Below, piece by piece: positions 2,530 through 56,900 of a stretch of 64,000 nt of DNA. Under the pieces are notes generated by a model. The model worked only from the letters and a program-made list of their open reading frames with translations, did no database searches and was not told the DNA's origin. Source of the DNA: Psammoneis japonica (Eukaryota); assembly GCA_008632985.1 (NCBI GenBank), contig QPGO01000083.1, positions 285,075 to 349,074 of the forward strand, read 5' to 3'. Position numbers and translations under genes: made by a program. Numbering within the stretch: the first letter of the stretch is position 1; the number at the start of each line of letters is the position of its first letter.

Positions 2530-2801
2530 GTCGTCCGGATGAAATAGACCACATTTGATTCATAGCTTTATAGTAAAAAGATATTGCTTCGTGATAAATT
2601 TGATATGCTGCAGAAATAGTCAACCATAGCTTATCTTAAACCCAGTGTTTCCAGTTTCTAATCAGGGTCTGGGAAGCACCATGAACACCAACGGCTTTAC
2701 CGAAAAAATGATGAGTTAATTACCAACGATGATTGGCTCTTTTTGTCTAAAACAAAACTGCCCCGGAGAGCAAGCTAGGCAGTTATCAAAAACTTTCAAC
2801 T

Positions 2802-5949: not shown

Positions 5950-7950
5950 GTCAGGGGCAGGCAAGCCAGGTGCAAGGCGGGGGGGGGGGTCGCTGCAACA
6001 TCAATGGCTGGGAAGTGGTGTGCAGATGGGGTTGCATGAGGTGGGGGTGGAGTCAGGGGTGAGTTGAGCACCAACGTCAGCTGGGTGCTTCTTTGAGGGG
6101 TGGTTGGGAAGTGGGCCTGCAGGTTTGAGCAGGACATCTGTTGGGAACAGCGTGGGCCTGGGAGAGGGCTGAGGTCAGTGATGGTGGTGCAAACAGCATC
6201 TTGGATTTGGCTGGATGGCAGGGTCTTGAGAAGGCATGGCCACCAAAGGGGTTGAGGGCACAGGAGCCACACAGGCATGTAGAGCATTGAAGGTTGAAGG
6301 GGACAACAGGAAGGTGGAGCTTGCGCTGAAGGAGAAGGGCAAGTTGGGAGGATGAGAGGGTCCTTGGGAAAGGGAGTGGAGGCACAGGCTGGTGAGAGGG
6401 GAGAGAGCAAGGAGGGTGGAACTTGCTTGAGGTCTGGGCAACTGTGGCAGAGCAGAGTGTTTGGTTTGTTGTGGTGGAAGTGGGTGCACTGGGTCAGGCC
6501 TCAAAAGCTGACCAGGAGAGGGGTTGGAAAGATGAGGAGCCAAGCCAGAAGAGGGAGGGGGTGAGGTGGCAGAATGCGGTGCAGAGGCAGAGGGTGGGGT
6601 GAGAGTTAGACCAACAGGCCAAGGGACCAGGCCATGTGGGCAGGAGGGTGGGTGTTGTTGGCTGCCAAAGGATGTGCCATGCCTGGCCAGTTGGAAAGAG
6701 CAGGCAAGGGAGATGAGAAGGGAGGGAATGGGTGCAGCAAAGAGATGCTGCAGCAGCTGACATCATGGAGGGAGGCTGGGAGATGGGCGATGAGCTGGAC
6801 GGTGGTGATGGGAAGTGGGGGAGGGATGTGGTGGTGAGGCAGTGAGGTGGGAGAGGAAGCAAAGGGAGTGGCCAGCTGCAGTGTCAGTGAAGGGTGAGGC
6901 CCAATGGAAGAGGTTGGGTGTGTCATTGAATGATGAGCAAAGGCAGCAGACATGTTTGGAGAGGAGGCAAGTGATGATGGGATGGAACGTTGGTGAAAGA
7001 GTGTGCTCTGGGTTTGTTTGTCAGTGAGTTGGGTCTTGAGGTGGCAAAGGTCTGAGGCAAAGGAAGCAGCTTTGTGTCAGACAAAAAATTGGAGGCAAAA
7101 TCAGGGGAACCTGCAGGTTTGCTGAGGAGTTGAATGCCTGTGGTGACTTTGGGGTGGAAGCTGGGTTGGTGGTGGGATTGAAAAGGGCAAGGGCATTGGA
7201 GAGGGAGGCAGCAGCATCAGGGGGGAGAGTGAGGGTGAAGAGCCAGTGGCAGAGCTGAGAATCTTCTTCTTGGCATGGCTGAGTGTGGTGCCATGCAAGG
7301 TGCCAGGATGGACAGTTGGTGCAGGAGCCAAGGGATGATGGAGCAGGGGAGGAAAATGTGGGTGTCATCAAGATGCTCAAGAGGTGGTGGACTTGGAGTG
7401 GGGAGGGAGATGGAGCTTCAGCTGTTGGTTGAGTGTGATGAGGACTCCGGCCAAGCCCAGGCAGGCAAAGGTGGGAGTGAGGGGACAGCCTTGGGCAATG
7501 CCTTCAGGTTGCACAAAGGAGGGCCGCCAGCGCTGGTGGTCATGGTGTTGTCAGACATTGGGCTGTTGGTGTGCCATGCTGAAGAAGAGGAGGAGAGGGT
7601 GGTGCTGAGGGGAGGAAAAGAGCATGTCATGTCAGACATCACAGGGGCTTGTTGAGTTGGTTTGCATGGCTCCAGAAGGACTGCTTTTTGGTGGAGGGCA
7701 CATCTGGATGGGGAGAGGCATTGTTCCATGTTGGCACAGATGGCATGGATCAGAAAGTCCATGATGCTGTGGATGCTGACACCAAATTGGCCAGAGCAGA
7801 GCAGGTCAGCAGCAAAGGTGGTGATGAAGAGAAGGTGTGCAACAAGGGTGCCTGTGACATGGCAAAAGAAAGTGCCAACACTGAGATTGTGAACTGGGTG
7901 GCCATGATCAAGCCCCGCCTCACGCTTTGCGGCACTGGCTCTGTTGCCAG
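5950..7950 (-). mobile_element. Degenerate non-LTR retrotransposon with RT, zinc knuckle and restriction-like endonuclease (CRE/R2-type architecture)
   Basis: Minus-strand fragments in the expected order: LSVGTFF..GQFGVSI..MDFLIH (RT N-part), EGIAQGCPLTP (~7475-7505), EHLDDTHIF (YxDD with Y->H, ~7352-7378), CLCGSCALNPFGGHAFS (zinc knuckle, ~6225-6280), PADV (~6073-6085) and AIDV (~5995-6010). Many frameshifts. Confidence 0.7.
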
Positions 7951-9399
7951 TCACTTTGGAACAAGGACGTCACAATCAGGTGATGTCCTGACCGGCCAGT
8001 CCTTGTTCCTCTTCTGCCATGCTGTTTCAGTGTGCTGGAAGTGTGGGTCAGTCGGCACCAGCACAACTGGCAATGGAGTGATGGCACTTAAATTAGATCT
8101 TTTTTTTTTTTTGCCAACACTGATGTGCAGGCCAGAGCTCAGAAAGGTTGGGTGGGTCATTGTGGAGGGTTGGTCTGAGAAGACGGAGACTTGGAGTGGT
8201 TGGAAGAGGCACTGGCTTGCTGAAAGGCAAGGACTGACTAAATGCACAGTGTGCATTTTTGAGTTTTTGGGGCTCATTTTGTGCCAAATGTGCAAAAATG
8301 GGCCAATGTGTAGAAACACACTGGGGTTCTACGTGGCTCACATTGAAGGGTTGCAACACACCAGTGATGAGCTGGCAACTGCACCAGAAGTGAACAGAAA
8401 CAAGCAACAATCACAAAACTGACTGTTGCACACACCAACAGCAGTCACCTGCTCAAGCAAGTGACAATGCTTGCTGTTCATTTGTTCAGACGTGCGGATC
8501 TCAAAAATGTTGTGCAGGATCTCATGCTGCAAGCTTTCGAGAATCCTTTTCAACTGAGAATGCACACACTTCACAGATGCGCTTGAGACTTGATCCAACA
8601 CTGCCAAATGCACAGCAAGCTTCAGACAAGCAAATCCACAGTGGGGGTGAAAAGGAGGGCAATGATGAAAGTGGGGCAAAGTGCAACAGGGCAGGTGGAG
8701 TGCCACTGCAACAATGGTGCAAGTGGTGAGGAAGAGTCAGGAAGCCATTTTGGAAGGTGTGGAGAAGTGCAGCTTGGGTGGGGAGCAAACCCCGCCAGCA
8801 TTTTCAAAAAGGTTGCTGTCATCATTGTGCTCTTTTTTGGCAAAAAAGCATCTTGAAATCTGGGGGGGGGGCAGAGGTGGAGGGTTGAGCCAGCAAGAAA
8901 TTGTGCAGAAACATGCTGCGCTGGCTGCAAAGATTTCTGTGTGACACAAAATTGCCCACACATCTGCTCACACCTCTTGTCTCAAGAACGCTGGGCAGTG
9001 TCCCCTGCTTGCACATGCAGGGGTTTTGTTCACTCAAGAGCTTCCTCAGCAATGACCTGCTGCAGAAGCAGTGTTGCATGCTGCATGCCAGCAAGAGCCA
9101 CTGCAAGCTCACTTCTTCTTTTCGTTGACATTGCCTTGTGCATCAATGACTTGCAGAAAGCAAGCTTTGCTTGCTGCCTGTGCTGCCCACCCCCTTGCAG
9201 CTCTTTTCTTGCTGGAGCTCCTTCTTCTCCTGATTCCCTGGATGAGCAAGTCCAGCTTGAGGTCTGGTTTTTTGTGGTTTGTGCACCGCAGCCCACAAGA
9301 GAGCTTTGCTGGAAGCACATCAGCCACAAAGAGAGAAGCAGGAGGCAAAAAGAGCAAAAGAGGGCAGTCATCTGGCAATTGGCAGACACTGGCAATTTT

Positions 9400-10450
9400 C
9401 TTTTGAAGCATCATTGTGGCAGCCATGCATGGGAAGTTGTCCCACACTGTCTGCTGGATGCCCCGTGGGATGCCTTGCCAGTCTCTCTGTTCCAACCACA
9501 TCACAGACCATGCTTGAACCTGGTTTGTGGTGCTTCAAAAGGTGCGCTCTCCCCAAGACCTCAACTCCAGAGAGCTGTTTTTGGGGTGTGTGTGGCACAG
9601 CTGAGCTGCAGGTTGCATGTGCTGACATTGAGAGAACATGGCACCCCAGTCAAATGCAGGGTTTAAAATGATGCCTGATTGCCACTGTGTTCAAACCCAT
9701 TCTCTGTTTTGACTCTGGTGGACTCTGATTTGGTTCATTTTTGAGTGCACCACCACTCCTTTTTTGTGGCCTTGCTGTTGACAGTGCTCCTTGCTTTCCT
9801 GCTGCTGCATGGTCCCTGTGCCAATGTTGAGGCCAGACACTTCATCCAGATGGGTTCCAGTCACTCAAATCTTTTTGTGGTCGTGCTCCACATGATGCGT
9901 GGCCACCACCTTGTGCTTGGGGTGTCCCGAGCAAGACTGATGAAGTCCTCCATGCATTTCACTCTGCACAGGAGAGGGGAGCATTGCCACTGTGAAGTGC
10001 AGTGTAACAGAGGAGGAGAGTGTCAGCAATGTTGATGATGCAGATGTGGTGAAGAGCATCAGCCAGGCTGCTGGTGCAGTGGCGATGGTGGTGGTGGGTG
10101 GGGGGCACAGCTGGGGACGCGGCATGGATTGGAAGAGGCAGAGAGCATGTGCTGAGGTGGACAGGATGCTGCGGTCACTGGTTTGCAGTGCTTGCAGCAT
10201 TGTGGAGGTGTCGCAGCATGGCAACTGCAAGATGTTGCCCCAATCATGGCAGTGTGCAGTGACGCACGATCTCCCTTTCTTGGGGTCATTTCAGAGACAC
10301 AAGCACTGCAAAAGAGGGGCAGAGCTGTGTAGACAGCACACCTGCTGGCATGAAAGTGGCAAAGTGCCTCCAGCACTCCGGCTTTTTTGTTGGACAGCTG
10401 TTGAGATGTTGCAAAAGGAGGAGGAGGAGCTTGGCTGCAAGTGCCAACGA
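9400..10450 (-). pseudogene. Decayed, hypermutated copy of the 3' end and downstream flank of the 12340..16938 gene
   Basis: Colinear with ~12100-13130, e.g. gaggtggACAggatgctgcggtcActgg (10154) vs gaggtggATAggatgctgcggtcGctgg (12858), and gattGccactgtgttcaa vs gattAccactgttttcaa. Confidence 0.8.
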
Positions 10451-11222
10451 TGGCTGTTTGCTGTCTGAAAACAAAGCTGCCCTGCACCATGACACCAGCC
10501 AACTTTTCAAAATTCAGCTCAACACAAACCACTCTCATTGCACAAATGCTGTGAACAGCTGTGCAAGCCCGTCTCAAAGCCTTTTGCAGTGTGTGGCACT
10601 TTGCAAACCTCTTTGCATGGACCCTTCCCCTCACATGTCCTCCAGTCTGAGCCTCTCTGCTTCCTCCTGCTGGGTGCCTGGGTCATTTCTTGACCCAGTT
10701 GTTCAGGGGAGACAAACACGTCGCATTCTTCGATGGTTGAAGTTGGAGCAGTTGCCATGGCATGGAGACGGGGAACGATGGCACACCAGGTGTTATGAGC
10801 AAGGCGCGGCAACAAACATTCAGCACTTCCAAAAAGATGAAAATCATCAGCAATAAGTTCAAACGCATGCTCTGTAGACTTTGCGTAGCCAGCATACGAC
10901 ACACAATGCTCATACAAATGCAGGTAGATCATTATTTTAAAATTTCATTACATAAAGAAACCCTAACGGTTTTTGTATCATACAAATAAGCAATCTAATT
11001 ATGCGTATGGTCAGCACTCAGTATTTTTTGTGTCATTCATTATCATATGTTACGTATATGTATGTGTATTAGACAAAACGCCTCCGCTTGTCGTGGCTCA
11101 CAAAAGAGGAAAAGGCGCTCCAAACATACCCGTACCGTGTACCGTCTTCGTTGTCGCCACATTGTATCTCTTCGATACCTCTTCTCCTTTCACCAACTTG
11201 AAACTTGCTCTGTTGCTGCAGA

Positions 11223-22892: not shown

Positions 22893-25800
22893 TGCCCGTG
22901 CATCTGTCGAGTCCTCCACCCTGCTCACGCACCTCACCACCGCACGTCTTGGTGATGGCACTTGGAAAGGTCCGACCCACTGGTTCATCCTTCATTGGCA
23001 AGATCAGCTGTGCAAGTGCGAGGCACTCATCCCGGCCAGTGACCACTTCTCTGAAGGACAGAAGCACGTCATGCTCGAGAATGCCGCACACCCTGTCGAG
23101 GAACTCCGTGCTGTCAAGAACCAAGCTGATCAGCATCGTGCGCAGAGTGGCAAGAGCCTCACATGCGATCAATGCTGTGGCTTGCTCCTCTCCGCGGCAG
23201 CTCAATGCGACAGCACGTTTCAACCCAAGACGACACCTCGAGCTCCCCGACGTGCCACATGCGCACACGACGTCTGCTCCGAGGAACCGTCCGACGATGT
23301 GTTCTACAACATTGACAGTGACATTGACGTCCTTCAGGCCAATGCTGCCTGCACCCGTGGTCCCAGCCTCACCGGTGACCAATGGAAACGTCTCCCTCCC
23401 GACTGCCAATGGATTTGGGATTCGTTGCCCCATTCCTCCAAGGCAATCATCCTTGAGCATTCTCGTCCGCCTCACCGTAACCCGTGAGACAGCAACTGCC
23501 ATGAGTCCATTGCGGCCAACCTTCACGACCAACGCCTTGGGAGTGACGGTGATGTCAACTTGTCCAACACGACTCCTGCTGACTCTGGTGACCCCGCTCC
23601 GAATGTGGGTGCCACTTCGGACAATCCCATCCTGGCGCACCTCACCAAGCGCAAGCCACTGCCACCCGGTGATCTGCGACGTCTGTTGTCTCCTAACCAA
23701 GCCCCCAACGCTGGACGACCGGGGCCATCCGCCGCTCCCTCTACTCCGCCAGCTCCTGCCGATGACATGGAACTCAACGGCCGCACTTGCCGCCGCGTTG
23801 ACAACCACAATGTCATTTGCTCTGCCTCTGCTCATCGCTCCACACGCACTGGTGCTCTAGTCGATCGTGGGGCCAATGGCGGCATTGCTGGCGACAACGT
23901 TCGCGTCATTGCATGCGCCTCTCGCCAAGTCAACGTTCAGGGCATTGACGACCATCAATTGGTGGACATCCCTGTTGTCACCGCTGGTGCCGTCATTGAG
24001 ACCCAGCGTGGTCCCGTCATCGCCATCCTCCATCAGTGCGCACACACGGGCAAGGGCAAGACCATCCATTCCTGCGGCCAGCTCGAATGGTGCAAACAGG
24101 ATGTCAATGATCGCTCTGTCAAGGTGCCCAACGGCTTGCAACGCATTGCCACTCCTGATGGCTGTGTCATCCCCATTGACATCAAGGGCGGCCTGCCTCA
24201 TGTTGCCATGCGACCTTACACTGATGCCGAATGGGACACCCTGCCCCATGTCATCCTCACCGGTGATGACACATGGGATCCTTCCATCCTCGATCACTCT
24301 GTCACTGACGACGACCAGTGGTGCGACGCGATCTCTGACCCACAGGACGATCCCACTGCCAACCTGTTTGACGAATGCGGCAACTGCCGTCATCGTGTCA
24401 TTGTCAACGAGACCATCATGTCCGCTTCCTTGTCTGCCGATCACGCGTCCGCCCTCGATGATCACCTCATTCCGAACGACGACATGTTCTGCGAGTGTCA
24501 TCTGCACGCGATTGACCCCAAGGACGACAACGTTCCACCCCCGGAGCGCACTGTGCAGCCCAAGGACCCCCCCTTCGAGTCTCTTTGGCCTCACTTTGGC
24601 TTCCCACCTGCCGATGCGGTCCGTCGTACTTTTGACTGCACCACGCAGTGTGCCCGCATGCCCGCCGGCACACACCTTAGGAAGGCCTGCAAATCACCCA
24701 ACCCCGCCCTTGATGTGCACTGCCGCAACGAGCCTGTCGCCACTGACACCATTCATGCCGACACCCCGGCCGTCGACTCTGGTTGCACCAGCGCCCAACT
24801 GTTTGTTGGCACCGAGTCTACCGTCACTGACGTCTGCGGCACCAAGACGGACAAAGAGTTTGTCAACACACTCGAGGATCAGATCCGTGAGCGTGGTGCC
24901 CCATCCAAACTCATTGGCGACCGTGCTCAAGTTGAGATCAGCAACAAAGTGCTCGGGATCCTACGAGCCCTCTTCATCTCCAGCTGGCAAAGTGAGCCTC
25001 ACCAGCAACACCAAAACTTTGCCGAGCGTCGACACCAGACCGTGAAGCGCATGGCGAACACTGTCATGGATCGTTTTGGTTCGCCCGCCCACACATGGCT
25101 GCTGGCGCTCATGTGTGTGTGCTTCACACTCAACCACACAGCATCCCCACGTCTCCACTGGCGCACGCCCCTCGAGACTCTCACTGGCTCCACCCCGGAC
25201 ATCAGCCCATTGCTTCGCTTTCACTGGTGGGAACCCGTGCACTTCCACCTCGATGACTCCGATTGGCCACCCGAATCCCGTGAGTTGCGTGGACGCTTCG
25301 TTGGCATTGCTGAGCACATCGGCCACCAGATGACCTTCAAGATTCTCTCTGACGAGACTCAGAAGATCCTCTGCCGGTCCAACGTACGCTCCGCTGCCAC
25401 CGATCCTGCCGTTCGAAACCTGCGTCTTGATCCTCCTGATGGGGAGCCACCTGAACCCATCATCAAATCTCGCCATGACGACAACCCCGTCGATTCTCCT
25501 GATGGGGAGATCAGGACACCCAAGATGCCAGTTTTCGATCTGCAAGACATCATCGGACGCACCTTCCTCATGCAGCCACAAGAGGACGGACAACGCCACA
25601 GAGCTCGCATCGTCAAGGCCGTCGAAGACCACGAATGGAAAGTGAACGGCAATCCCGAGCTTGCAAGTTCGTCTGCTCTGTCAACAACGACAAATGCGAG
25701 GAAGTCCTTGCCTGCAACGACATCATGAATCACATTGAGCAAGAAGACGAAGACACTGCTGTTTGGAAATTCCGACTCATCGTGTCACACGAAGGACCTC

Positions 25801-28059
25801 TGAAGCCTCATGACCCAACCTGGAAAGGCTCAAGCTACAACATCATGCTTGAATGGGAAAGTGGGGAGATCACGTCCGAGCCTCTTGCCATCATTGCCAA
25901 GGACGACCCCGTCACCTGCGCCATCCATGCACGAGAGAACGGACTTCTCGACACGGATGGCTGGAAGCGGTTCCGCACCATCGCGAGGTGCCAAAAGAAG
26001 CTATTTCGCATGGCCAACCAAGCCAAGCTTTGCTCCTTCCGCACTGCACCTCGCTGCAAGTGCGGATGCGAAGTTCCCCGGAACTGCAAACACGCCATGT
26101 CACTGGACGAGCGCAACGGCAACCGCAAATGGGGAGACGCAACTAATCTCGAGATGGACCAACTCAAGGAATACGAAGTCTTCCATGACTGCGGGCCCTT
26201 CGAGTCTTCCACTCCTCCTGCGGGACACAAGAAGATCCGAGTGCACCTGGTGTGCGATGTGAAACACGACGGTCGCCACAAGGCACGACTCGTAGCCGAT
26301 GGGCACCTCACGGACGCACCTGTCGACAGTGTCTGCTCCGGAGCAGTCTCCCTCCGTGGCCTTCGGCTGATGATTTTCCTGGCCGAACTCAACGAGTTGG
26401 AGACATGGGCCACCGACATTGGCAATGCCCATCTTGAAGCCACCACCAAGGAGAAGCTCTACATTGTAGCCGGACCCGAATTTGGCAAACTCGAAGGACA
26501 CATCCTTGTCATCCACAAGGCCCTGCATGGACTGCGCAGCTCCGGTCTCCGCTGGCACGAGCGCTTCGCTGACTGCCTGCGAGCTGAAGGCTTCTTCCCC
26601 TGCCGCGCCGAACCCGACATTTGGATGCACAGGAACGGCGACCACTGTGAGTGCATTGCCGTTTATGTGGATGACCTTGCCATTGCTGTGAAGGACCCTC
26701 AATCTTTCGTCGATGCTCTCACGGAAAAGCACAAGTTCAAGCTCAAGGGTGCGGGACCCATTGAGTTCCATCTGGGTTGCGACTTTTCCCGGGATCCCGA
26801 CGGCACCTTGTGCCTGTCTCCGCGCAAGTACATCGAGCGCATGGTCAACAGCAGCACCCGACTGTTTGGGGAGAAACCTGCCACCAACGCCCTGTCACCT
26901 CTGGAGAAGGGTGACCACCCCGAACTGGACACTTCCGAACTGCTGGAGCCCGATGGCATTCACAAGTTCCAGTCCCTTGTTGGTTCACTCCAATGGGCAG
27001 TGTCTCTTGGTCGAATTGACATTGCCACGGCCGTCATGTCACTCTCTAGCTTCCGAGCTGCGCCCCGTCAAGGCCACTTGGATCATGCCAAACGCGTCTG
27101 TGGGTGCCTCTCCAGGATGCGACACGGCGCTCTCCGCGTTCGCACGGAAGAGCCCGACTGTTTGGATCTCCCTGCTCCGGCCTGTGAATGGATGCATTCC
27201 GTGTGCGGCGAAGCAGAAGAGATGATCCCGAAGGACGCTCCACCGCCCCTTGGCAAGTTCGTCACTGCCACCCACTACGTCGATGCAAACTTGCACCATT
27301 GCATGCTCACCGGACGCTCTGTCATGGGAATGCTCCACTTCCTCAACAAATTCCCGGCTGATTGGTTCTCTAAGAAGCAAGCCACCGTGGAGACTGCGAC
27401 CTGCGGGTCTGAATTTGTTGCCGCAAGGACTTGTGTCGAGCAGATCATCGACCTGCGCATCACCCTGCGCTGCCTTGGCGTCCCGATCCGTGATGTCAGT
27501 TACATGTTCGGTGACAACAAGTCAGTTGTAGACAGTGCCACCATCCCGCACTCCAAGTTACACAAGCGACACACCGCACTGTCGTTCCACCGTGTGCGTG
27601 AGGCAATCGCCTCTGGTTGCCTTGAGTTCCACTTCATCGAAGGCTCCCGCAACCCTGCTGACATTCTCAGCAAGCATTGGGGTTGCTCCCAAATCTGGGA
27701 CCTTCTCCGCCCCCTCATGTTCTGGAACTTCATTCCATCCGAAGTCGAATCTGTTTCTGTGACTCCTCAAGCAAACTGGGGAGTGACAGGATTTGAACAG
27801 GATTTAGGTGCGCGCGAAATGTCGCACGCTGTTTAGTTTGCCGCGCACAGTTTTGTGTGCTCCAGTTCCACGCGTTCGCGCGCGACGCAGTTTGCTTTCG
27901 AGCCACAAGGCTCACAAGAATGACAACAGCAGCCCGATTGCACCGACTCACACGTCTTTCGGCTCCTGCAACGGTCTCTGAGCGGAGACTCATCTGCCAT
28001 TTAGACAGCAGCAAGGAGTTGTTGTTTGAATTCTTGCCATTTGCCTTCAATTTCTGTCA
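22893..28059 (+). mobile_element. 5'-truncated Ty1/copia (CoDi-like) LTR retrotransposon, copy 1, inactivated
   Basis: gag remnant, protease (LVDRGANGG), integrase, RT (KARLVADGH, YVDDL) and RNase H (FGDNKSV, NPADILSK). CGA->TGA stop at 23485, 1-nt frameshift near 25660, PPT-like ggggag before the 3' LTR. Confidence 0.95.
27784..28059 (+). repeat. 3' LTR of copia copy 1 (276 bp, TG...CA)
   Basis: tgacagg...tttctgtca, reverse-complement homolog of the LTRs at 53691 and 60684. Confidence 0.95.
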
Positions 28060-31000
28060 ATGTCGTTCTCGTCGTGTTGTTGTCGCCTGGTTCATTCATG
28101 TTGCATCTGGCATTGCTTCGCGCACTGTGAGTTTGAATCATTCGATTGATGTCTGTGAGGTCGCACTGTCATGCGTGCGAATGTGTTTGGACAGAACATT
28201 GCGGGTGTGGCCTGTGACGTCATGATAAAAGCCTGTGTGACGTGGGCATGATCACACCTGTGACAGTGTTTGGACAGAGTCTAACCCCACTCCGCGCACT
28301 GTGTGCATGGCATGCTGTGCACAACATTTCAGAGGTGTTGCAAAACTTCCCCGAGACATTGCATTTCTGTGGACATGCCGAACCTTTCAGTGCACTCGAC
28401 AGTCGCAACAGGCTGCAAAGGACAGCTTCCGCCACAGGTCTTACATGGTTGTTTAATGCCACAGAAGTTGGTCAATTTTGGTGGGATTTTTTACGTAGAA
28501 TTCTACGTTGTGCACAGTGTGCCATGCACAAGGTCCGAGTCGCTCAAGTTCCATGCACCTGACTCAGCATGACATGCACAGCATTTGTTGACGTTGACTC
28601 AATGCTTGTTGCCATGTTTGATGGACAGCCTTTAATCTGGCAGCTTTCTTGTTCCAGTGACCTTGGAAGTGTGGTCACTTTTTGGCGAGGCCAGTGCGCA
28701 GCTTGTCTGCGAGAAGTTACACAAGCATTTTTCTACGTGGTTTCTACAAGAATCGTTGAATCTCATTGCACGTGTGCCACACCAACCGCTTAAAGTGGGT
28801 CAACAAGAACGTCAAAGGCGTCTGACATGTTTGACACAACAAGGTCTTTCCAGATTCTTCAAAGTGGTTGATCAATGGCATGACCAAAAGGCGCCAAAAA
28901 ATTGAGTTGTGCACAGCATGCTGTGCACATGCGCGATTTTGGCGAAAATGCGCAAAAATGTCTGTGCACAGCATGCCATGCACAATGCAAGCGGGGACAA
29001 GCAGGGGTGTCCCTGGTCCGCGCATCATTGCGCTTTTGTGCAACAGTGTGCAATTTTTGGGTCACAGTCATTTTGAGGTCATTCTCCATGCCATTGCAGC
29101 AAAGTGCAATGAGGATTGCATGTGCATGTGTGTCATCGGATGCCACATAAAAATGGCATTGGCATGTCAAATGCCTCATTCAGCATGAACATCAATGTTC
29201 AAACAATGGCGCTCAAAATGTCAACCCTGTGGAGTTCCACGTCAATTCCAGTGCAAACCGCGATGTGCTTTTCCGCAACGTGGCGATTTTCACAACCAAA
29301 AATGCATCCTCTTGCTGGTTGTCTTTACGAAAGCCACCTCAGGTTGTTTGACACTGTCAAACCACCAGACACAATCATTGAAGCCTGCTTTGGCCAGTTG
29401 GGTCAGGTCAGGTGTCAAATGACCGGCTTTGTCAATTGTTGGCAACAGCACAAAACCATGTTGTACTTTCGCGCAACGTGAATGCGCGGACCAGGGACAT
29501 GAGTTAGCCGGGGTTGGACTCTGCTGTAGCTCGTTGGTCGCGCACATTTTGAGAGTAATGAGTGATCAATTTACGGCATGCAGGAATGACCCACTCAGTG
29601 CATGTGGGGGGTGGGGGGCTGGCAAACTGAGCGGCAGCGAAGCAAGTCGTGAATTCGGCAACAAGGCCGCGTGAGTCTCCATTCCATTTGGGAGGTTCTA
29701 CAATCTTCCCGGTGAGAGCAGGAAGACCAGTGGATGCCAACTGTGAGAGGATTGCACAGCCATCACATCCATGGACGCAGCAAGTGTCTTCTTCCATCCC
29801 TCGCACAAACGGCGGTCCAGCAGCACGTCATCCTGAACAAGTTTCGAGCACATTTTCATGGAGAGTGCTCCTGCCAATGAGATGAGCCGATCATCACACT
29901 GTCACAGAAATCGTGCTGAGTGGGTCAGGGTGTGTCGGGTTTGTGCATGGGAGTGCCAGCTTGGGCAAAGCGAGTGTGCACAGCCTTCAGAAAAATGGCA
30001 ACATCAAAAGGTTCAAGGGAGTGGAGGTGCAGTCTGGGAGTCTTGCAGAAAGTTTTGGCATTGTGGTGCTTCTCTGATGCAGACGTGAACTTTCCTGCAA
30101 CAGAGAAGCCAGACAACATGTCTGGGAACGATGAGTGGGAGGAGAGCAGCCAGCAAGGCAATGCAATGGTTTCCAGGATCACAGTGATCTTCATGGCCAT
30201 CAGGGAATCCACAGGTGGGGATGAAATGTGGGGAAGGGCTGAAGAGTCTGGGGATGGAAGGGGGACCACGTTTGGCATCTCTGCACAAATGGCAGCAAAT
30301 TCCTTGTGTGTTCCTTTGACGGCATGACAAGCAGCATCTGAAACCTTCTCAGACACCAAAGCATGGGTGCTGGCATCATCAACTGATGCCCGGGGTGCAT
30401 TGAGCTGGGCCTTTGTAAGGAGTTGAGCAGAATTGTTGAGAACTGGCCAGCAGCATTGCGATGCAGGGTGCAACTTTTTCCCTGAATTTTGCTCTGGGAC
30501 AATTTTGTTTGTCAAAAAAAGCTCATCATTTTGGCAAGACCATTGGCACACATGTTGCTTGGCTTGAAGCTCGTCCATGGTTGACCATTTCTGCAGCGAA
30601 TCAAATTTGTCACAAAGCACTGTCTGGCACTGTAAAGCAATGAGTCAATCTGTGCAATTTCATCCGGACGACTCATTGGTGCTTCCGTTTCTTGCTTGAG
30701 CACTGCTGTGGAGAGCCAGGCATGGCAGCAGCACAGTCAGGCACTGCACAATTGACCAGAGAAGGATCAGCAAGCAACAATTCTAGAATCGTGTTGACAT
30801 CCGATGTCTCACCCAGAGCCGCAAATGCAAATGGTGGGTGCAAGCCCTCATGCTTCAATGCCAAGGACTCTGGAAATGCTTTGACAAGATGTTTGATCCC
30901 TCCATCCCAAACCTTCCCACACGCAATGGCACAATGGATGGGAAGCTTGCCGCAATTGTTGCAGAGGCTTTTCTCAACTGTCATCTGTCAATGAGAGGTG

Positions 31001-32290
31001 AGTTGTGCAGGCTTTGCCAATGTCCCAGCTGCAGCAGGATCTGTGCAAAAGCAGCTGCAGCTGAGCATCCAGACCCAGAGTTTTCACTCAAGCAAGGAGC
31101 AGCAGCAAGTGCACTGGTGCACTTTGTTGTGTGCCAGCTCTCTTTGGGAGTGCCTTGAAAAAAAAACAGGGCCCAACATCAACAATCAAATTGACTGCTT
31201 TTAACCTGTGATTGCTTTGAACAATCTTGCCAGCTCAGGACAACTGCCTGTTGATGAAAAATTTCTGCCACCCCCTTGTTTCTCAATGCCGCCCTCTTCT
31301 CCAACACATGAAGCAGGCTGGCGGGTGTCTCCATCATCAGCCCAGATGGGGTTTGTGCAGCAAGTGAAGCAGCTTGTGTGGAACAAAGTGATTTGCAACA
31401 TCCCTCTTAGATGGCTTGCTTTTGAGTGCAATGAGATGTGAGCTGATGCTGGCTGTGACAGGAGGTGGGTGTGTCAGATGTCTGAGATGTTGTGAAAGAA
31501 ACATGCACGTCATGTGCATGCACACGCAGACTTGTTCCAGACTTGGGTGGCACGCACATGCCCCTTTTTGCACAAAAAAATAAAAGTTTTTGTGCTTTGT
31601 CAAACATCGCACACATTTCATTAAATTGACCACATGAGTGCTTGCAAGCAAAACAAACAGAATGAACTCGAACCAACAAACAGCCAAACTGGCCATGGCT
31701 TTCAGTGACCATGATGGCCCACTTTTTTCAGCCTTGTGGAAAATTGAATGTCATGACGAGGACCTCTGCATTTGACACAGTCTGTGGCATCAACAAAAAC
31801 AGTGAAAACGCTTGTTGCAGGCTGCAGCTTGGCACAATGATGCCAAATCTGTCAGCAACAACAATTGAGCCTCAATTCACTCAGCTGGTTCTTGCCAAAG
31901 TGGCTGTGTGCAGCTTGGCTGGGGCTCTGGCACACAGGATCTCTCCAGCTGCTGCTTGGAAAAAATCTTGTCTTGTTTGCCCCTCAACACCCAGCTCTGC
32001 AGAAAAGGTCTCGGTCTTGGCCTTCGTCTTGTGCCAGGCAAGAAGAGCAAAGTGCTCTGGCGTGTTGGCTCTCTCTGCTCCCTCCTCTTGTTGGACTCTG
32101 CCCCTGAACTTCAACCTAGCTCACCACACACCACGACGTGATGGGAGGCGTTGGGCAAATGATGCTGACGCTCATGTGACGACCGCTGCCTTAACAATGA
32201 CGTTGAACTGAGCTCGTCACCCCTCAGACACGTTGCGCATCATTGGAGGATCTTCGGACAAAATCCTTCGGCAAGTCATCGGAGGATCTT
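28060..32290. other. TpA-depleted hypermutated block of nested repeats and gene remnants
   Basis: Very few TA and reduced CG. A short, less-mutated island lies at ~29460-29660. Confidence 0.85.
30570..30975 (-). pseudogene. Hypermutated inverted copy of the 3' end and 3' flank of the ankyrin-like gene (2245-2630)
   Basis: LCNNCGKLPIHCAIACGKVWDGG..GLHP..TILELLLADPSLV vs LYNNRGELPIHCAIACGKVWDGG..GLYP..TILELLLADPSLV. The 3' UTR also aligns. Confidence 0.9.
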
Positions 32291-42424: not shown

Positions 42425-42529
42425 AAGGTATTTCTATATTAAAAAAAGATGTCGAATGACCTGTGGCAAAAGTCAGTGTTATTTGCGCCGCTCTCCGATG
42501 TAGATAAAAAATCTTCAACACGTAAAAGT

Positions 42530-44060
42530 GATCAGCAGCACACCACACAGACCTGTTTTGAAGCAGGAGGCAGGTTTCTGGCAAGAAAGCCTTGTTTGAC
42601 TTGTGTTCTTCAACCTTTTGGCTTTTTTGTTGACTCGGCACTCAGCATGAAACAGTTGACACTAGAGACAGGAGGCTTTTATCCTGTTCTGAGGGACGTT
42701 TGCAGCATCTGCGTGAGCTGCATGCCCTTGGGACAAGAAAACCCAGACTGCAGACCAACAGCTGCACAAGAAGGAAACACGAACGATTGATGGTGGAGTT
42801 GTCAGGGGCGCAGACATGTCAACAACAGTTGGTGTCTCAAGGGCCGCATCATCTTGTGCAAACATGACAAGCACCTTTTTTAATGCACTGGAGAATTCCA
42901 GCAGAGGAGGAAGGAGCGAGTTGCTCTCTCTGTTCTGTGACAAGCAGCTGCTGAGACAGCCACTCTCTCTCTCTGGCTGGCAGCAACAGCAGTGGACTGC
43001 CATGCCAGGCATGCCACAAAGAGCCCTGCATTCATTCAGTGGTGATTGTGATGATGTGGGTTGGCCAGGCCCGTGACTGCCCATGCTCGCCTGCACAAAT
43101 TTCACAGTGCCAGGGACTGCCTGTGGAAGTGCATGACAAAGTGCATGAACGTGGTGCATGAGTGTTTTGTGAGCCTCAGGTGTGAAGAACCTGCCGGCAT
43201 GTTTGAATGATTTCATGCTTTTTTAATTTTTCATCTGTGTTGAGCAGTGGAAACTTGGCTGTCTTTTTGGCATCATGGTCTGTCCAATCTGATGTCAGGC
43301 TTTTCATGTTGTCATTTGTGATGTGTTGTTTGCAGGGGTTGTCAATTTGACAAACAGCCCACCACCAAAGAAGCTCAAGCATGACAACATCAATGACTCC
43401 AATGACTTGCTAGCTTTGGTGCAAGCAGTGGCAGCAAAGTCTCCTCCTCCTCTCCTCTTGCATCTCCACTTTCTCACACATCACTGCTGTCAACATGAGT
43501 TGGGGAGGATTTCTCAGAAGTGCACTTGCGCATGGCTCAACATTTGTGACTGCAGCTTTTTGAAAACATGCCGCTCCACTCCAATGACAATGCTTGCCAT
43601 GTTGTCAAGCCGCACCTGTTGGAAATGTTGAGCCAAGTTCAAGGATCATTTGGAAGACCCACATGGTGTGTTTTTTGACCAACTGCACATTTTGGAGCCA
43701 GGCACCTGCGAGCACGGTCTGTGCAAGGCCAAGTTTCTGCAGGGAGGCATGGAAAAGGAAAAGGAAGGATTGGCCACCATGGCCGGCAGTTGCAAACAAG
43801 ATTGCACAAGTGACTCCACAATTGAAACGCTCCACCATTTTCACATGCTCCTCAATTTGAAGACCATTGTGGCGCAAGTCGTCTGCCATCGCATGATGGA
43901 AGCCCTCATTTCCAATGAGACTGTCCACCCGCTTCAGCATCAACTTTTCTTGGAATGAAAAGTAAAATCATCCCACTGGCTCTTGAGAGTGCTGTTCAAC
44001 TCTTGGACGATGACCCTTGTGAAATGGAATGGCTCGCCCTTGACGAATGCCTGTGCCAAT
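42530..44060. other. TpA- and CpG-depleted hypermutated block
   Basis: Near absence of TA (survivors mostly ttta/taaa/taga), TG/CA-rich. Confidence 0.85.
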
Positions 44061-47399: not shown

Positions 47400-49340
47400 C
47401 TGCGTTTGGAAATTTTCGCGCAAACTCATTGAAGTCTTTTCTCATTGTCAACGCGCAGAGCCATGTCAACCACACAAAAACGTTGGGCATCCACAGTGGC
47501 TCCATGGAGCCGCTCCAAGAGAAAAGATTGATCATGCTGCCAAAAACCACCTGTGTCACCATTGGTCAAAAGAAAAATGCTGCTCACATGTCTTGGACAC
47601 AAAAGTGCTGGGGGGGGAAAAGTCATGGACCTGGTGGCCGCTGCTGCGTTGCTCAAACAATCATGTCTGGGCAGCATGGCTCAGAAGACAGTCAATCAGG
47701 AAAGCAAGTCATGGACTGTTTGACAGCTCTTGTCACTTGTCAAAAAAGCAGGCAGTTTGTGGGCACCCATCATTTCAGCTGCTGGCTGACGGGTTCCAAT
47801 CCCAGGTGGGACTCCGTGTGACATTGGGCCCGCAGAATTCTACGTGCGAGCTTCGCAGCAAATCTCACAGCAATGAAAATGTGAATGATCACCAACAGAA
47901 AAAGAGGCAATTTTACGAACGCATCTCCTCCTTCAGACTTGCAGCACATGAACAAAAGTTTGCATGGGTGTGTTCTGCAGACATTAAAGAACACACCCAG
48001 CACATTTTCATTGTCACAAATGTTGAAAATGGAAAGCGTTTGGCTTCGCAAAATAGGAAGCATGAAACAATTTCGTAGAATGTCACATTTTTTGTTGCTT
48101 CATTTGGCACTCATGGCAAAGACTTTGAAGGCAGTGCCAGGTGGTCAAAGTGCCATAAAGAGAGAGAAGCAGAGCTGCTTCCTCCAACAGATTTTGGAGC
48201 TGAGAACAAGATGAGCTCAAGAAGCTTGAAATCCAGTGTGCAGCAGAGCCAAGAGCAGCTTTTTTGTCAGCAATGAAGTGTCATTGCCATGCATGGAATT
48301 TTTGGCAAGAGTGCAGTGTTCATTTGTGGTGATGTGGCCTCCACTGATGGAAAGAGTTTGCACCAAGTTTTCTGGCACCAGCGCTGCTGCTGAGTGCAGA
48401 ACACACTCGTCACCCACCAGAAAGGCTGGGCCAAGATGCTGTGTTCTTCAAAAAAATTGCAAAGCTTGCAAAACAAAAACCAGCTGGGTTCATCATCAGC
48501 AACTGAAGTGGCTTTTCTGTGAAAATGCAAACAGTTGCTCTCATGCTGGAACTGCACTCTTGAGAAATGGTGCACAGAGATCAGCACACTCAATGCCATC
48601 ATCCCATCTGCTGGTGTCTTTTGAAGTGGCTCTGACTTGCTGCCAGCAATGTTGGTTGACACACCATGGTGCAAATGCTCATGCAATCAAGCACATGGAT
48701 GCAGGTGAACACCCCAGATGAGCAAATTCAAAGAGCAGTGAAGCAGCACATCAATTTTTGTGCATGTGGCAAGAGAAGCAAGACAAAGCTGGTTTTTGCA
48801 GGTCTGTGGCAGGTGGCTCTGAACTGCATTGTCAATTGAGGCAAGAATGGAGAGCTTTCATGCCCATCAACCAAATCAACTTGTCACTTTGTGGCCTGGT
48901 TGTTGTGGTCCCATGCATTGTGCACAGCAGGAATCTGATGTCAACACACACAGCTTTTCTTGCCAGGCTGGTGGCTGCCCCCCTTCTTTGATGATGGCTG
49001 CTGTTTGGAAAAGCTTCTGCCTGTGCCTTCAAATTTGTCCACATTTGTCCATTGTGACATGCAAAGCCACTTCATGGCCATTTGTGGCACATGAGAAGTT
49101 TTTCACTGTGAAACAGGTTTGGTGCTGCTGAGAAAAGTTGTTTTTTGGGGGCATTTTTGGCCGAAGCTCGACTCGCACAAGAAGGTTCCATGATGCCCCC
49201 ACAAAATTTCAGCGCATTACAACATTTCAGTGCATCTCCATGTTGTGCATGGATTTTGGCAACGACACCCGGCAGGCCATCATGGCAGTGAACACACACA
49301 GATTGAAAAGAAGAAAAATTCGGAGGAGTCGATTTTTTTC
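47400..49340. other. TpA- and CpG-depleted hypermutated block between tRNA-Tyr and the Ca2+-ATPase promoter
   Basis: Near absence of TA. Contains a repeat shared with ~63640-63770. Confidence 0.85.
47790..47910 (+). repeat. Dispersed repeat, second copy at ~63640-63770
   Basis: ggtgggactc..gtgtgacatt..gggccc[g/a]cagaattct[a/g]cgtgcgagct..gcaatgaaaatgt[g/a]aatgat in both copies. Confidence 0.8.
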
Positions 49341-53690: not shown

Positions 53691-53966
53691 TGATAGAAAT
53701 TGAAGGCAAATGGCAAGAATTCAAACAATAACTCCTTGCTGCTGTCTAAATAGCAGATGAGTCTCCGCTCAGAGACCGTCACAGGAGCCGAAGGACGTGC
53801 AAGTCGGCATAATCGGGCTACTGTCATTATTCTTGTGAGCCTTGTGGCTCGAAAGCAAACCACATCGCGCGTGAACGCGCGGAACTAAAGCACACAAAAC
53901 TGTGCACGGTAAACTAAACAGCGCGCGATGCTTCGCGCGCACCTAAATCCTGTTCAAATCCTGTCA
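53691..53966 (-). repeat. 3' LTR of copia copy 2
   Basis: Direct repeat of 60684-60959, preceded (element sense) by PPT-like ggggag. Confidence 0.97.
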
Positions 53967-56900
53967 CTCCCCAGTTTGCTTGAGGAGCCACAGAAACAGA
54001 TTCGACTTCGGATGGAATGAAGTTCCAGAACATGAGGGGGCGGAGAAGGTCCCAGATTTGGGAGTGACCCCAATGCTTGCTGAGAATGTCAGCAGGGTTG
54101 CGGGAGCCTTCGATGAAGTGGAACTCAAGGTGACCAGAGGCAATTGCCTCACGCACACGGTGGAATGACAGTGCGGTGTGTCGCTTGTGTAACTTGGAGT
54201 GCGGGATGGTGGCACTGTCTGCAACCGACTTGTTGTCACCGAACATGTGACCAACGTTGCGGATCGGGACGCCAAGGCAGCGCAGGGTGATGCGCAGGTC
54301 GACAATCTGCTCAACACAAGTCCTTGCGGCAACAAATTCAGACCCGCAGGTCGCAGTCTCCACGGTGGCTTGTTTCTCAGAGAACCAATCAGCCGGGAAT
54401 TTGTTGAGGAAGTGGAGCATTCCCATGACAGAGCGTCCGGTGAGCATGCAATGGCACAAGAAAAAACAATCTGCTCAACACAAGTCCTTGCGGCAACAAA
54501 TTCAGACCCGCAGGTCGCAGTCTCCACGGTGGCTTGTTTCTTAGAGAACCAATCAGCCGGGAATTTGTTGAGGAAGTGGAGCATTCCCATGACAGAGCGT
54601 CCGGTGAGCATGCAATGGTGCAAGTTTGCATCGACGTAGTGGGTGGCAGTGACGAACTTGCCAAGGGGCGGTGGAGCGTCCTTCGGGATCATCTCTTCTG
54701 CTTCACCACACACGGAATGCATCCATTCATGGGCCGGAGCAGGGAGATCCGAATGGTCGGGCTCTTCCGTGCGAACGCGGAGAGCACCGTGTCGCATCTT
54801 GGAGAGGCACCCACAGACGCGCTTGGCACGATCCAAGTGGCCTTGACGGGGCGCAGCTCGGAAGCTAGAGAGTGACATGACGGCCGTGGCAATGTCAATT
54901 CGACCAAGGGACACTGCCCATTGGAGTGAACCAACAAGAGACTGGAACTTGTGGATGCCATCGGGTCCCAGCAGTTCGGAAGTGTCCAGTTCGGGGTGGT
55001 CACCCTTCTCTAGAGGTGACAGGGCGTTGGTGGCAGGTTTCTCCCCAAACAGTCGGGCACAGCTGTCGACCATGCGCTCGATGTACTTGCGCGGAGACAG
55101 GCACAAGGTTCCGTCGGGTTCCCGGGAAAAGTCGCAACCCAGATGGAACTCAATGGGTCCCGCACCCTTGAGCTTGAACTTGTGCTTTTCCGTGAGGGTG
55201 TCGACGAAAGATTGAGGGTCCTTCATGGCAATGGCGAGGTCATCCACATAAACGGCAATGCATTCACAGTGGTCGCCGTTCCTGCACATCCAAATGTGGG
55301 GTTCGGCGCGGCAGGGGAAGAAGCCTTCAGCTCGCAGGCAGTCGGCGAAGCGCTCGTGCCAGCGGAGACCGGAGCTGCGCAGTCCATGCAGTGCCTTGTG
55401 GATGACAAGGATGTGTCCTTCGAGTTTGCCGAACTCGGGTCCAGCTGCAATGTAAAGCTTCTCCTTGGTGGTGGCTTCAAGGTGGGCATTGCCAATGTCG
55501 GTGGCCCATGTCTCCAACTCGTTGAGTTCGGCCAGGAAAATCATCAGCCGAAGGCCACGGAGGGAGACTGCTCCGGAGTGGACACTGTCGACAGGCACGT
55601 CCGTGAGGTGCCCGTCGGCTACGAGTCGTGCCTTGTGGCGACCGTCGTGTTTCACGTCGCACACCAGGTGCACTTGGATCTTCTTGTGTCCCGCAGGAGG
55701 AGTGGAAGACTTGAAGGGCCCGCAGTCATGGAAGACTTCGTACTCGTCGAGTTGGTCCATCTCGAGATTAGTTGCGTCTCCCCACTTGCGGTTGCCGTTG
55801 CGTTCGTCCAGTGACATGGCATGTTTGCAGTTCCGGGGAACTTCGTGTCCACACTTGCAGCGAGGTGCAGTGCGGAAGGAGCGAAGCTTGGCTTGGTTGG
55901 CCATGCGAAATGGCTTCTTTTGGCGCCTCGCGATGGTGCGGAACCGCTTCCAGCCATCCGTGTCGAGGAGTCCGTTCTCTCGTGCATAGATGGCACAGGT
56001 GACGGGGTCGTCCTTGGCGATGATGGCAAGAGGCTCGGACGTGATCTCCCCACTTTCCCATTCAAGCATGATGTTGTAGCTGGAGCCTTTCCAGGTTGGG
56101 TCGTGAGGCTTCAGAGGTCCTTCGTGTGACACGATGCGTCGAAATTTCCAAACAGTGGTGTCTTCGTCTTCTTGCTCAATGTGATTCATGATGTCATTGC
56201 AGGCAAGGACTTCCTCGCATTCGTCATTGTTGACAGAGCAGACGAACTTAGTGAGCTCGGGATTGCCGTTCACTTTCCATTCGTGGTCTTCGACGGCCTT
56301 GACGATGCGAGCTCTGTGGCGTTGTCCGTCCTCTTGTGGCTGCATGAGGAAGGCACGTCCAATGATGTCTTGCGGATCGAAAACTGGCATCTTGGGTGTC
56401 CTGATCTCCCCATCAGGAGAGTCGACGGGGTTGTCGTCATGGCGAGATTTGATGATGGGTTCAGGTGGCTCCCCATCAGGAGGATCAAGACGCAGGTTTC
56501 GGACGGCAGGATCGGGGGTGGCGGAGCGGACGTTGGACCGGCAGAGGATCTTCTGATTCTCATCAGATAGAATCTTGAAGGTCATCTGGTGGCCGACGTG
56601 CTCAGCAATGCCAACGAAGCGTCCACGCAACTCACGGGATTCGGACGGCCAATCGGAGTCATCGAGGTGGAAGCACACGGGTTCCCACCAGTGAAAGCGA
56701 AGCAATGGGCTGATGTCCGGGGTGGAGCCAGTGAGAGTCTCAAGGGGCATGTGCCAGTGGAGACGTGGGGACGCTGCATGGTTGAGCATGAAGCACACGC
56801 ACATGAGCGCCAGCAGCCATGCATGGGCGGGCGAACCAAAACGATCCATGACAGTGTTCGCCATGCGCTTCACGGTCTGGTGTCGACGCTCGGCAAAGTT

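Follow-up and report, generated by a model that had tools for sequence, protein, structure and literature searches.

Transposon territory in a diatom genome loses TpA and CpG dinucleotides to the same products, TpG and CpA, a pattern suggestive of targeted A-to-G mutation of DNA by an agent of a little-known kind. In the preferred reading, to which a probability of about 0.6 is assigned, two mutational processes of very different rate act on the same silenced territory, with TpA lost by adenine deamination that a silencing mark would license. The window is a 64,000-nucleotide stretch of DNA from the diatom Psammoneis japonica (contig QPGO01000083.1), and positions are counted from its first letter. 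As an earlier note on this DNA had stated, its older blocks are short of both dinucleotides, with observed/expected (o/e) ratios of 0.04-0.11 for TpA and 0.16-0.46 for CpG across five blocks:

4390..10790, no strand: doubly depleted block with a decayed paralogue (~9640-10440) of ORF 12340-16938; TpA 0.04, CpG 0.16
28060..32290, no strand: TA- and CG-depleted composite block; TpA o/e 0.11, CpG 0.46; sharp right edge at ~32300
42530..44060, no strand: doubly depleted block; TpA 0.06, CpG 0.28
47400..49340, no strand: doubly depleted block; TpA 0.05, CpG 0.28
60965..64000, no strand: doubly depleted block adjoining the 5′ LTR of copia copy B; TpA 0.08, CpG 0.43

For the block at 28060-32290 the expectation is 269 TA and 260 CG, and the counts are 29 and 121; its TpG/CpA o/e is 1.75, and past its right edge near 32300 the density of TA climbs from 0-2 to 4-14 per 100 bp. 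CpG is uneven inside it, at 0.65 in 28280-29500 and 0.09-0.40 in the right part. The other four blocks range over 0.04-0.08 for TpA and 0.16-0.43 for CpG, and the adjoining gene DNA (32291-42500) has o/e values of 0.61 and 1.03. In the decayed paralogue at ~9640-10440, TG or CA stands at 21 of 26 TA and 29 of 42 CG sites of ORF 12340-16938.

The block at 28060-32290 is a mosaic in which older repeats lie beside a fragment of a gene:

28280..29000, no strand: repeat family M1, ~720 bp, MITE-like; 12 other copies aligned
29008..29500, no strand: repeat family M2, ~490 bp, MITE-like; 6 other copies aligned
29501..30559, no strand: depleted DNA; TpA 0.10, CpG 0.39
30560..30970, minus strand: decayed copy of the 3′ end of intact ORF 769-2529; 75% amino acid identity over 97 residues
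31526..31883, no strand: repeat family F3, ~355 bp; at least 22 other matches, 10 aligned

Inverted ends of 32 bp (M1, copy L034) and 31 bp (M2, copy L043) were found, and none were detected in the two F3 copies tested. The M1 copy in the block retains 8/39 TA and 24/33 CG, with all 39 TA left in L034; the M2 copy retains 3/26 TA and 17/23 CG; and the F3 copy retains 0/20 TA and 4/11 CG, with 18-20 of 20 TA left in five other copies. The decayed copy at 30560-30970 carries TG/CA at 12/19 TA and 10/19 CG of the intact ORF. A genome search gave no further match to 29501-30559, and the ORF at 29925-30644 has no Pfam match. At columns other than TA and CG, the block repeats are 4.8-8% diverged from their family majority, compared with 0.75% for the copia elements, which agrees with the earlier claim that they are older than the copias.

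Two copia copies border depleted blocks:

22895..28059, plus strand: copia copy A, 5′ part missing; RVT_2 match, E 2.7e-25; its 3′ LTR (27784-28059) adjoins the block
53691..60959, minus strand: copia copy B, full length, with 276-bp LTRs and a 5-bp target-site duplication
60684..60959, minus strand: 5′ LTR of copy B; the same end is often spared family-wide

The copies are 94.6% identical over 4552 columns, with TpA o/e of 0.12 and 0.23 and CpG o/e of 0.85 and 0.89. The ORF of copy B is open over 1965 codons, and its LTR pair differs at 7/14 TA, 0/20 CG, and 0/204 other columns, with two TG/CA swaps. Rates were estimated from 30 family copies that were the best matches to copy B and not a random draw. 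In these, TA has become TG/CA at 66% of 210 TA sites, CG has decayed at 4.8% of 487 CG sites, and private changes elsewhere amount to 0.18%; the loss of TpA outpaces the change of CpG to TpG/CpA about 20-fold, and change at other sites by a factor of hundreds. TpA loss thus runs far ahead of CpG loss, as first proposed, and the copias are indeed low in TpA and high in CpG. The further proposal that they lose TpA only is not exact, since both TA and CG have decayed after insertion in the 30 copies and young elements therefore lose both. Copy A, the most diverged among 31 copies, has lost 47/357 CG.

The two LTRs of one insertion offer an internal comparison. Across the 30 pairs, 232/378 TA columns differ (124 TG, 108 CA), with a further 48 TG/CA swaps, as do 31/595 CG columns and 28/6210 other columns; the insertions have a perfect 5-bp target duplication in 28 of 30 cases. 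Because the two LTRs of one insertion differ, the changes arose after it, and the TA and CG columns bear out the idea of two chemically different transitions converging on TG/CA. TpA becomes TpG or CpA (A:T to G:C) in genomic DNA after insertion and on both strands, with at least two losses on each strand in 42 of 44 LTRs having at least five losses. Editing of A to I in the RNA or cDNA of a retrotransposon, ahead of insertion, could draw on a raw sense-strand excess of A>G (1432 TG vs 822 CA inside the query, 1069 vs 787 outside) and on two A_deamin loci in the genome, yet it is largely refuted by the differing pairs and has next to no probability: both strands are altered within single LTRs, once context is accounted for the strand term is 0.14 +/- 0.09 (not significant, with a weak bias possible), and MITE-like repeats and gene fragments are altered too. 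The LTR pairs, both-strand hits, and strand term likewise run counter to ADAR/APOBEC-type action, which alters one strand before integration.

The hits are independent in each copy. Linkage of TG/CA outcomes over 60 sites equals that of shuffled data (r2 0.0484 vs 0.0481), and no strand coordination was found among neighbouring hits in the 30 copies (z at most 1.6). The target preference is TA followed by a pyrimidine, with TTAA and CTAA resistant and the 3′ base ranking C (1.19), T (1.01), A (0.60), G (0.51). In the 30 copies, A>G changes away from TA are 2.3 times as frequent as G>A changes away from CG, opposite in direction to the 2.21-fold GC-to-AT mutation bias of Phaeodactylum (PMC6604790). 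The implied TpA o/e before loss is 0.60 and the present value 0.19, and dating the LTRs with the Phaeodactylum rate would give very roughly 3e-7 per TA site.

The direction of the change and its coding consequences can be read from 120 homologues. Among the 20 columns in which at least 80% of them carry Tyr, copy B has 5 Tyr, 8 Cys, and 3 His; 91 of the 120 homologues have no Cys or His there. Conserved Tyr codons become Cys or His codons, so that the elements are disabled although they gain no stop codons. An initial metagenome scan was negative; the Tyr-to-Cys/His scar does recur in two copia relatives from beyond this genome. Four metagenome copia loci with CpG o/e of 0.10-0.24 lack it, which favours distinct machinery for the two losses. 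A protein search with the Ca-ATPase yielded no named close relative. An error of assembly or base calling, an inherited composition, or selection acting on TA to its disfavour might be suspected from scattered small indels between sequencing run X1 and the assembly and from the somewhat low TpA o/e of genes (~0.5-0.6), but the chance of any of these is very remote. A contig from run X1 reproduces block DNA at 29468-30928 with 4 substitutions and 3 gaps over 1464 bases, so the depletion is not an assembly artefact, and these explanations are refuted by that contig together with the TA-intact copies of the same families, the loss of conserved Tyr, and a median TpA o/e of 0.71 in 80 metagenome relatives.

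TA loss comes in tracts with sharp edges, each a few hundred bases long, and is near all-or-none within them. TA retention covaries out to ~200 bp (z 13-23), and retention in 5′ LTRs is bimodal, with a variance of 18.6 compared with at most 6.3 across 2000 shuffles; this and the other tests below the level of the element (LTR, tract, first 740 bp) are exploratory and mutually dependent. The earlier note had called the two losses clocks, a description that fails in its strict form: TA loss and background divergence, a noisy measure, are uncorrelated over 30 copies (rho 0.12-0.14), and loss is near complete in copies almost free of transversions (0-3), with 8/39 TA left in L033, 1/34 in L045, and 3/20 (6/15 CG) in L056. 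Other copies with 14-16 transversions retain 19/21 and 21/26 TA, with subfamily structure as a possible cause. Where flanks lie in normal DNA (8 of 60), TpA is 0.33 in the first 30 bp (6 vs 18 expected) and 0.40-0.64 farther out, and therefore there is little spreading, on small numbers. LTR retention is independent of flank state (6.75 vs 6.85 of 15), and the CG edge lies a median of 78 bp inside the TA edge, a weak result (20 edges, 15 positive, p 0.044).

Both losses occupy the same territory, as first supposed: in a non-random sample of 371 kb, 100 1-kb segments are low in both dinucleotides, 42 in TA only, and 3 in CG only. The separation of the two losses had been staked on their not scaling together across copies; covariation is seen in the 30 copies (rho 0.60, p 0.0005) and proportionality is absent. 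Both losses tend to leave an element's promoter end intact, and host genes are spared as well. Family-wide, 5′ LTRs keep 281/450 TA compared with 129/450 in 3′ LTRs (p 2e-24) and have lost 4/561 CG compared with 26/563 (p 5e-5), and over the first 740 bp the CG sites lost number 5/701 in TA-spared and 11/331 in TA-stripped tracts (p 0.005). The coupling is imperfect, as TA-stripped 5′ LTRs have lost 1/276 CG against the 26/563 of 3′ LTRs (p 0.0005), the fine-scale covariance of TA and CG across the element reaches only z -1.5 to -1.6, and some fully stripped 5′ ends show no CG change. A common silencing mark guiding both losses is plausible: these indirect signs mostly favour it, and the CG retained in TA-stripped 5′ LTRs is the one result against tight coupling.

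A system set off by homologous pairing of repeats, like the repeat-induced point mutation (RIP) of ascomycete fungi, would also target repeats. RIP changes C to T and creates TpA. The likeness lies in dinucleotide-specific transitions that cripple repeats after insertion, and the targets here are indeed mostly repeats and duplicated gene fragments, altered by transitions only; unlike in RIP, TpA is destroyed and G+C raised. A control pair is informative:

2635..4162, minus strand: duplicated ORF, partner 17111-18631; 96% identical, largely spared

This pair, 13 kb apart, has 39 TA in common (of 44 and 45) and 87 CG in common (of 92 and 97), which pairing-driven mutation would not lead one to expect. 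Twin LTRs, originally identical, meet different fates, same-family copies span intact to stripped, and the target in Bigelowiella natans is reported as single-copy (10.64898/2026.01.13.699255). RIP-like mutation is accordingly highly improbable.

In the preferred reading of two processes, CpG decay would be passive deamination of 5-methylcytosine set on transposons by a DNMT5-type enzyme, and TpA loss would be active and episodic, either permitted by the same repressive chromatin or shut out by active chromatin. It would most likely proceed by deamination of adenine to hypoxanthine by a TadA/ADAT2-fold enzyme, with hypoxanthine then fixed as G during replication. The young and old patterns would represent early and late points on a single exposure curve, with exposure set by locus as well as age. 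A bolder extension is possible but tentative, namely that diatoms have a dedicated chromatin-guided DNA adenine mutator that reads the CG-methylation silenced state, rewrites TpA tracts, is kept off promoters, and shares common descent with the rhizarian system as an old SAR defence in several diatom lineages.

The genome contains 27 C5-methylase matches, and DNMT5 was not established among them, the one weak candidate tested having no PDB match. Searches with PF00383, PF14437, and PF02137, and comparisons with the PDB and the ESM Atlas, singled out no candidate deaminase; of two ESM Atlas searches, one gave no usable match and the other gave matches at 0.78. The deaminases found look like housekeeping types, including an ADAT2-like gene, as expected in any eukaryote, and a TadA-like deaminase whose hydrophobic leader suggests organelle import. 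The uncoordinated strands speak against a processive single-strand deaminase, which might coordinate hits.

Two other mechanisms would act on the same territory. In heterochromatin, a writer enzyme may modify the T or the A of TpA so that the base miscodes, as would a modified thymine pairing with G or a methylated adenine deaminating later; TpA decay would then passively trail a second epigenetic mark, just as CpG decay trails 5-methylcytosine. This is a real but minor possibility that fits the palindromic target, the uncoordinated hits on both strands, the nucleosome-scale tracts, and the territory common with CpG decay; the near all-or-none tracts suit active bursts better than slow decay, as does the heterogeneity among Bigelowiella lines, and the non-TA A>G excess suggests an enzyme of relaxed specificity. 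Alternatively, repair of T:G mismatches after 5-methylcytosine deamination, with error-prone fill by a Pol eta/iota-type polymerase placing G opposite T, would explain the common territory, patch-sized tracts, covariation across copies, and off-motif A>G excess. Coupled repair is nevertheless improbable: patch resynthesis predicts same-strand runs, which were not observed in the 30 copies, CG is unchanged in some of the fully stripped 5′ ends, and copia relatives with heavy CpG decay retain their Tyr codons. Pol eta also targets AA as well as TA, and AA>AG accounts for only 41 private changes over ~660 columns in 30 copies, compared with 66% TA loss.

The TpA-erasing process would be a transposon defence running opposite to RIP, and the enzyme behind it may be an adenine deaminase that acts naturally on DNA. 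Over one third of the DNA sampled in this diatom (142/371 kb, non-random) has been rewritten and a young retrotransposon family disabled. An isolated signature becomes a testable system, now that its preferred motif, the length of its tracts, its avoidance of promoters, and its rate relative to CpG decay have been measured, in a group that permits gene knockouts. Without removal of the TA, CG, TG, and CA columns, dating by LTR divergence and repeat annotation in such genomes are strongly biased.

Among known systems, 5-methylcytosine deaminates passively, and the CG to TG/CA excess here (31/595 vs 28/6210) falls within transposon territory. In Phaeodactylum tricornutum, CG methylation of transposons depends on DNMT5, and 80-90% of DNMT5-dependent regions overlap H3K27me3, H3K9me2, or H3K9me3 (Hoguin et al. 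2023, PMC9998398). The confinement of CpG to TpG/CpA change to transposon territory is alike; the A:T to G:C change lies outside what 5-methylcytosine deamination can produce. TadA edits UACG, and evolved TadA editors favour TA (PMC12265680 and PMC13225742). TadA/ADAT2 and adenine base editors thus share the A-to-G change and TA preference, with UACG matching the TAC preference here; those enzymes are engineered or tRNA-acting, and the likeness is one of outcome and context.

For targeted A:T to G:C chromosomal mutation, the papers searched, few of them subscription papers, gave one precedent and no other TpA hypermutation in diatoms or elsewhere. It comes from an unrelated alga, Bigelowiella natans, for which a 2026 preprint describes hypermutation confined to TpA in viral inserts, namely integrated DNA of NCLDV and virophages (Mettrop et al., bioRxiv 10.64898/2026.01.13.699255). 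New mutations were seen there in 11 of 15 mutation-accumulation lines, mainly in two viral inserts, at ~1e-7 to 1e-6 per site per generation, and ADAT2 is proposed as the enzyme; the words "CpG", "diatom", and "LTR" are absent from its main text. Both systems change TpA to TpG/CpA in nuclear DNA, on both chromosomal strands, locally, and on foreign or mobile targets; action is uneven among lines there and among tracts and copies here, which may be comparable. The Bigelowiella system is rhizarian and directly observed, with TpA still abundant, whereas the diatom process is inferred from copies, its targets are retrotransposons, MITE-like repeats, and gene fragments, it approaches saturation over 142/371 kb, and a slower CpG decay accompanies the TpA loss.

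Within the block at 28060-32290, 29 TA and 121 CG dinucleotides are present against 269 and 260 expected, and TpG/CpA stands at 1.75 of expected, while gene DNA beside the block has TpA and CpG (observed/expected here and below) of 0.61 and 1.03. The other four blocks (4390-10790, 42530-44060, 47400-49340, and 60965-64000) have TpA of 0.04-0.08 and CpG of 0.16-0.43, in agreement with an earlier note that had described all five as low in both, and the two copia elements in the window have TpA of 0.12 and 0.23 and CpG of 0.85 and 0.89. A contig from run X1 reproduces 29468-30928 with only four substitutions and three gaps, which rules out an assembly error as the source of the depletion. At 31001-31007, one X1 contig carries four differences, including a TG/CA swap, and then jumps to 31882, which can be read as a second haplotype or paralogue. 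The block is a patchwork of repeats, a gene fragment, and other DNA:

28280-29000, M1, a MITE-like repeat of 720 bp
29008-29500, M2, a MITE-like repeat of 490 bp
between M2 and the ORF fragment, a stretch of about 1 kb without family assignment
30560-30970, a decayed fragment of ORF 769-2529
31526-31883, F3, a repeat of 355 bp

CpG stands at 0.65 across M1 and M2, falling to 0.09-0.40 farther right. Outside TA and CG columns, the M1, M2, and F3 copies differ from their family majorities at 42/526, 21/389, and 14/290 positions, distances inflated by subfamily structure, compared with 0.75% for copia copies, so it is fair to call the block repeats older. Copies of the three families range from TA-intact to wholly stripped, with heavy CG loss confined to stripped copies and one mild exception (L036, TA kept at 31/38 and CG at 24/31). 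Five TA-intact F3 copies (L051, L054, L057, L059, and L060) each border depleted DNA on one side and normal DNA on the other, which places them at block edges. A degenerate tandem array with units of about 178 bp occupies 20612-22170, ahead of the forward-strand copia, and the reverse-strand, full-length copia B has an internal 164-bp tandem duplication at 54302-54624.

Compared with the intact ORF, the block fragment has changed to TG/CA at 12/19 TA and 10/19 CG sites, and a second gene and its relic give 21/26 and 29/42. The silicon-transporter family has 24 matches in the 91-Mb genome, which marks the host as a diatom, one locus (G000:C38:226311-230342) being a single 1511-codon open frame with three such domains. 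Copia B has 33 full-length matches in the genome; across the best 30, itself included, 66% of 210 TA-origin columns were lost (range 50-87%), compared with 4.8% of 487 CG columns and 0.18% private changes at other sites, making TA loss ∼22 times CG loss on a log scale. TpA loss thus runs ahead of CpG loss, as proposed earlier, but young elements do not lose TpA only. The implied TpA of the family before loss, 0.60 of expected, is normal for the genome. The direction, TA to TG/CA, is fixed by tyrosine conservation in homologous proteins: where at least 80% of 120 homologues have Tyr (20 columns), copia B has five Tyr, eight Cys, and three His, and 91 of the homologues have neither Cys nor His there. 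Such changes cannot create stop codons. The copia B ORF (53964-59861, reverse strand) stays open for 1965 codons despite Cys or His at 11/20 conserved Tyr, and every stop listed within copia family matches is TGA, as expected from CGA decay. Private A>G changes outside TA (150 over 2582 columns) exceed G>A changes outside CG (68 over 2663) 2.3-fold, opposite in direction to the 2.21-fold GC-to-AT bias given for Phaeodactylum in the available text of PMC6604790.

Thirty LTR pairs, of which 28 are flanked by perfect 5-bp target duplications, differ at 232/378 TA columns (124 TG, 108 CA), 31/595 CG columns, and 28/6210 others; a further 48 columns are TG/CA swaps. Because paired LTRs differ at TA columns, the change was made after insertion, in chromosomal DNA. 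RIP triggered by homology is disfavoured, as the twin LTRs tell against it and an ORF pair 96% identical nevertheless shares 39 of 44-45 TA. Across copies, the outcome at one site does not predict that at another (r2 0.0484 vs 0.0481 shuffled), a few LTR columns look inherited, and both strands are affected in 42/44 LTRs with five or more losses. Raw counts favour sense-strand A>G, with a strand term of 0.14 ± 0.09 once context is included, and no strand coordination of neighbouring changes was found in copia copies (z at most 1.6). Surviving TA is strongly clustered over distances of up to about 200 bp (z 13-23). When 89 kb of doubly depleted DNA is set against 196 kb of normal DNA, relative survival ranges from 0.002 for ATAC and 0.003 for ATAT to 0.26 for CTAA and 0.59 for TTAA. 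If the Phaeodactylum mutation rate of 4.77e-10 (PMC6604790, available text) holds, LTR background divergence corresponds to at most about 5 million generations and 3′ LTR loss to a rate of at least ∼3e-7 per TA site per generation.

The two losses share ground: among 371 one-kb windows, a non-random sample comprising 171 on this contig and two 100-kb stretches of other contigs, both are low in 100 and neither in 226, TpA alone is low in 42, and CpG alone in three, all of them at block edges. Over the 30 copia copies the losses correlate with each other (rho 0.60, p 0.0005) but not with background divergence. The "two separable clocks" of the earlier note therefore keep their common territory but not their clock behaviour, and the data are best read as two processes that share a territory but differ in rate. 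Of 60 copia flanks, 52 fall within DNA already depleted, which suggests that the elements inserted into silenced blocks or survived there. Tests of the relation at finer scale are exploratory and mutually overlapping. TA is retained at 281/450 sites in 5′ LTRs vs 129/450 in 3′ LTRs, and CG is lost at 4/561 vs 26/563, although depleted DNA forms 29/30 5′ flanks. This protection is bimodal (15 copies spared, 15 not) and reaches about 400 bp beyond the LTR; of the CG sites within the first 740 bp, 5/701 are lost in TA-spared and 11/331 in TA-stripped tracts (p 0.005). Stripped 5′ LTRs proper lost CG at only 1/276 (p 0.0005 vs 3′ LTRs), which, with weak fine-scale covariance along the whole element (z -1.5 to -1.6), argues against tight coupling. 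Error-prone patch repair of 5mC lesions is an improbable source of the TpA changes.

CpG decay is consistent with deamination of 5mC; the DNMT5 of Phaeodactylum places this mark on transposons, in regions that also carry H3K9me2/3 and H3K27me3 (PMC9998398, available text). The C5 DNA methylase family has 27 genome matches (L132-L146, several contigs), several with internal stops, and DNMT5 was not established among them. TpA loss looks like an active, episodic process restricted to silenced chromatin and excluded from promoters. Its TA-pyrimidine preference resembles the UACG substrate of TadA and the TA preference of evolved forms, in the portions of that literature consulted, and TadA-type deamination may lie behind it; a miscoding modification at TpA is unlikely, if less so than patch repair. 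The genome encodes TadA-like, ADAT2-like, and other deaminases and two A_deamin loci, none of which was tied to TpA loss. The A_deamin loci (ADAT1/ADAR-type) are separate (L152 on contig C40, L153/L154 on C79), and C79 also has a 491-codon open frame (L127:313-1785, reverse strand) in which a 2OG-Fe(II) dioxygenase comes after a zinc deaminase half-domain, a putative single protein.

Outside this genome, 80 related metagenome copia loci have a median TpA of 0.71, and only L203 (0.31) falls below 0.4. It has Cys or His at 11/21 conserved Tyr and matches the P. japonica genome at 66-70% identity at best (40 of 386 candidates scored); the homologue protein P0181 has such changes at 8/20 and at most 66% identity to P. 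japonica copies. Organisms other than P. japonica thus probably carry the Tyr-to-Cys/His scar as well. Its absence from the remaining loci means little, as short-read contigs of multicopy elements can mask copy-specific changes. Loci L172, L174, L176, and L177 show the reverse, CpG of 0.10-0.24 without Tyr-to-Cys/His change, so CpG decay can proceed without the TpA process.

The observation is real, and its earlier interpretation is right in part. In the literature searched, no report of such TpA loss in diatoms was found. The closest system is Bigelowiella natans, whose integrated viruses acquire A:T to G:C mutations at TpA only, at about 6e-7, with ADAT2 proposed (Mettrop et al., bioRxiv 10.64898/2026.01.13.699255, available text). 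P. japonica shares the concentration of A:T to G:C change at TpA, the action on both strands of chromosomal DNA, and the restriction to foreign or mobile DNA; its TpA loss is uneven between copies and tracts. The P. japonica process is a variant of this barely known phenomenon; what the window contributes is the relation of the two decays, now measured.
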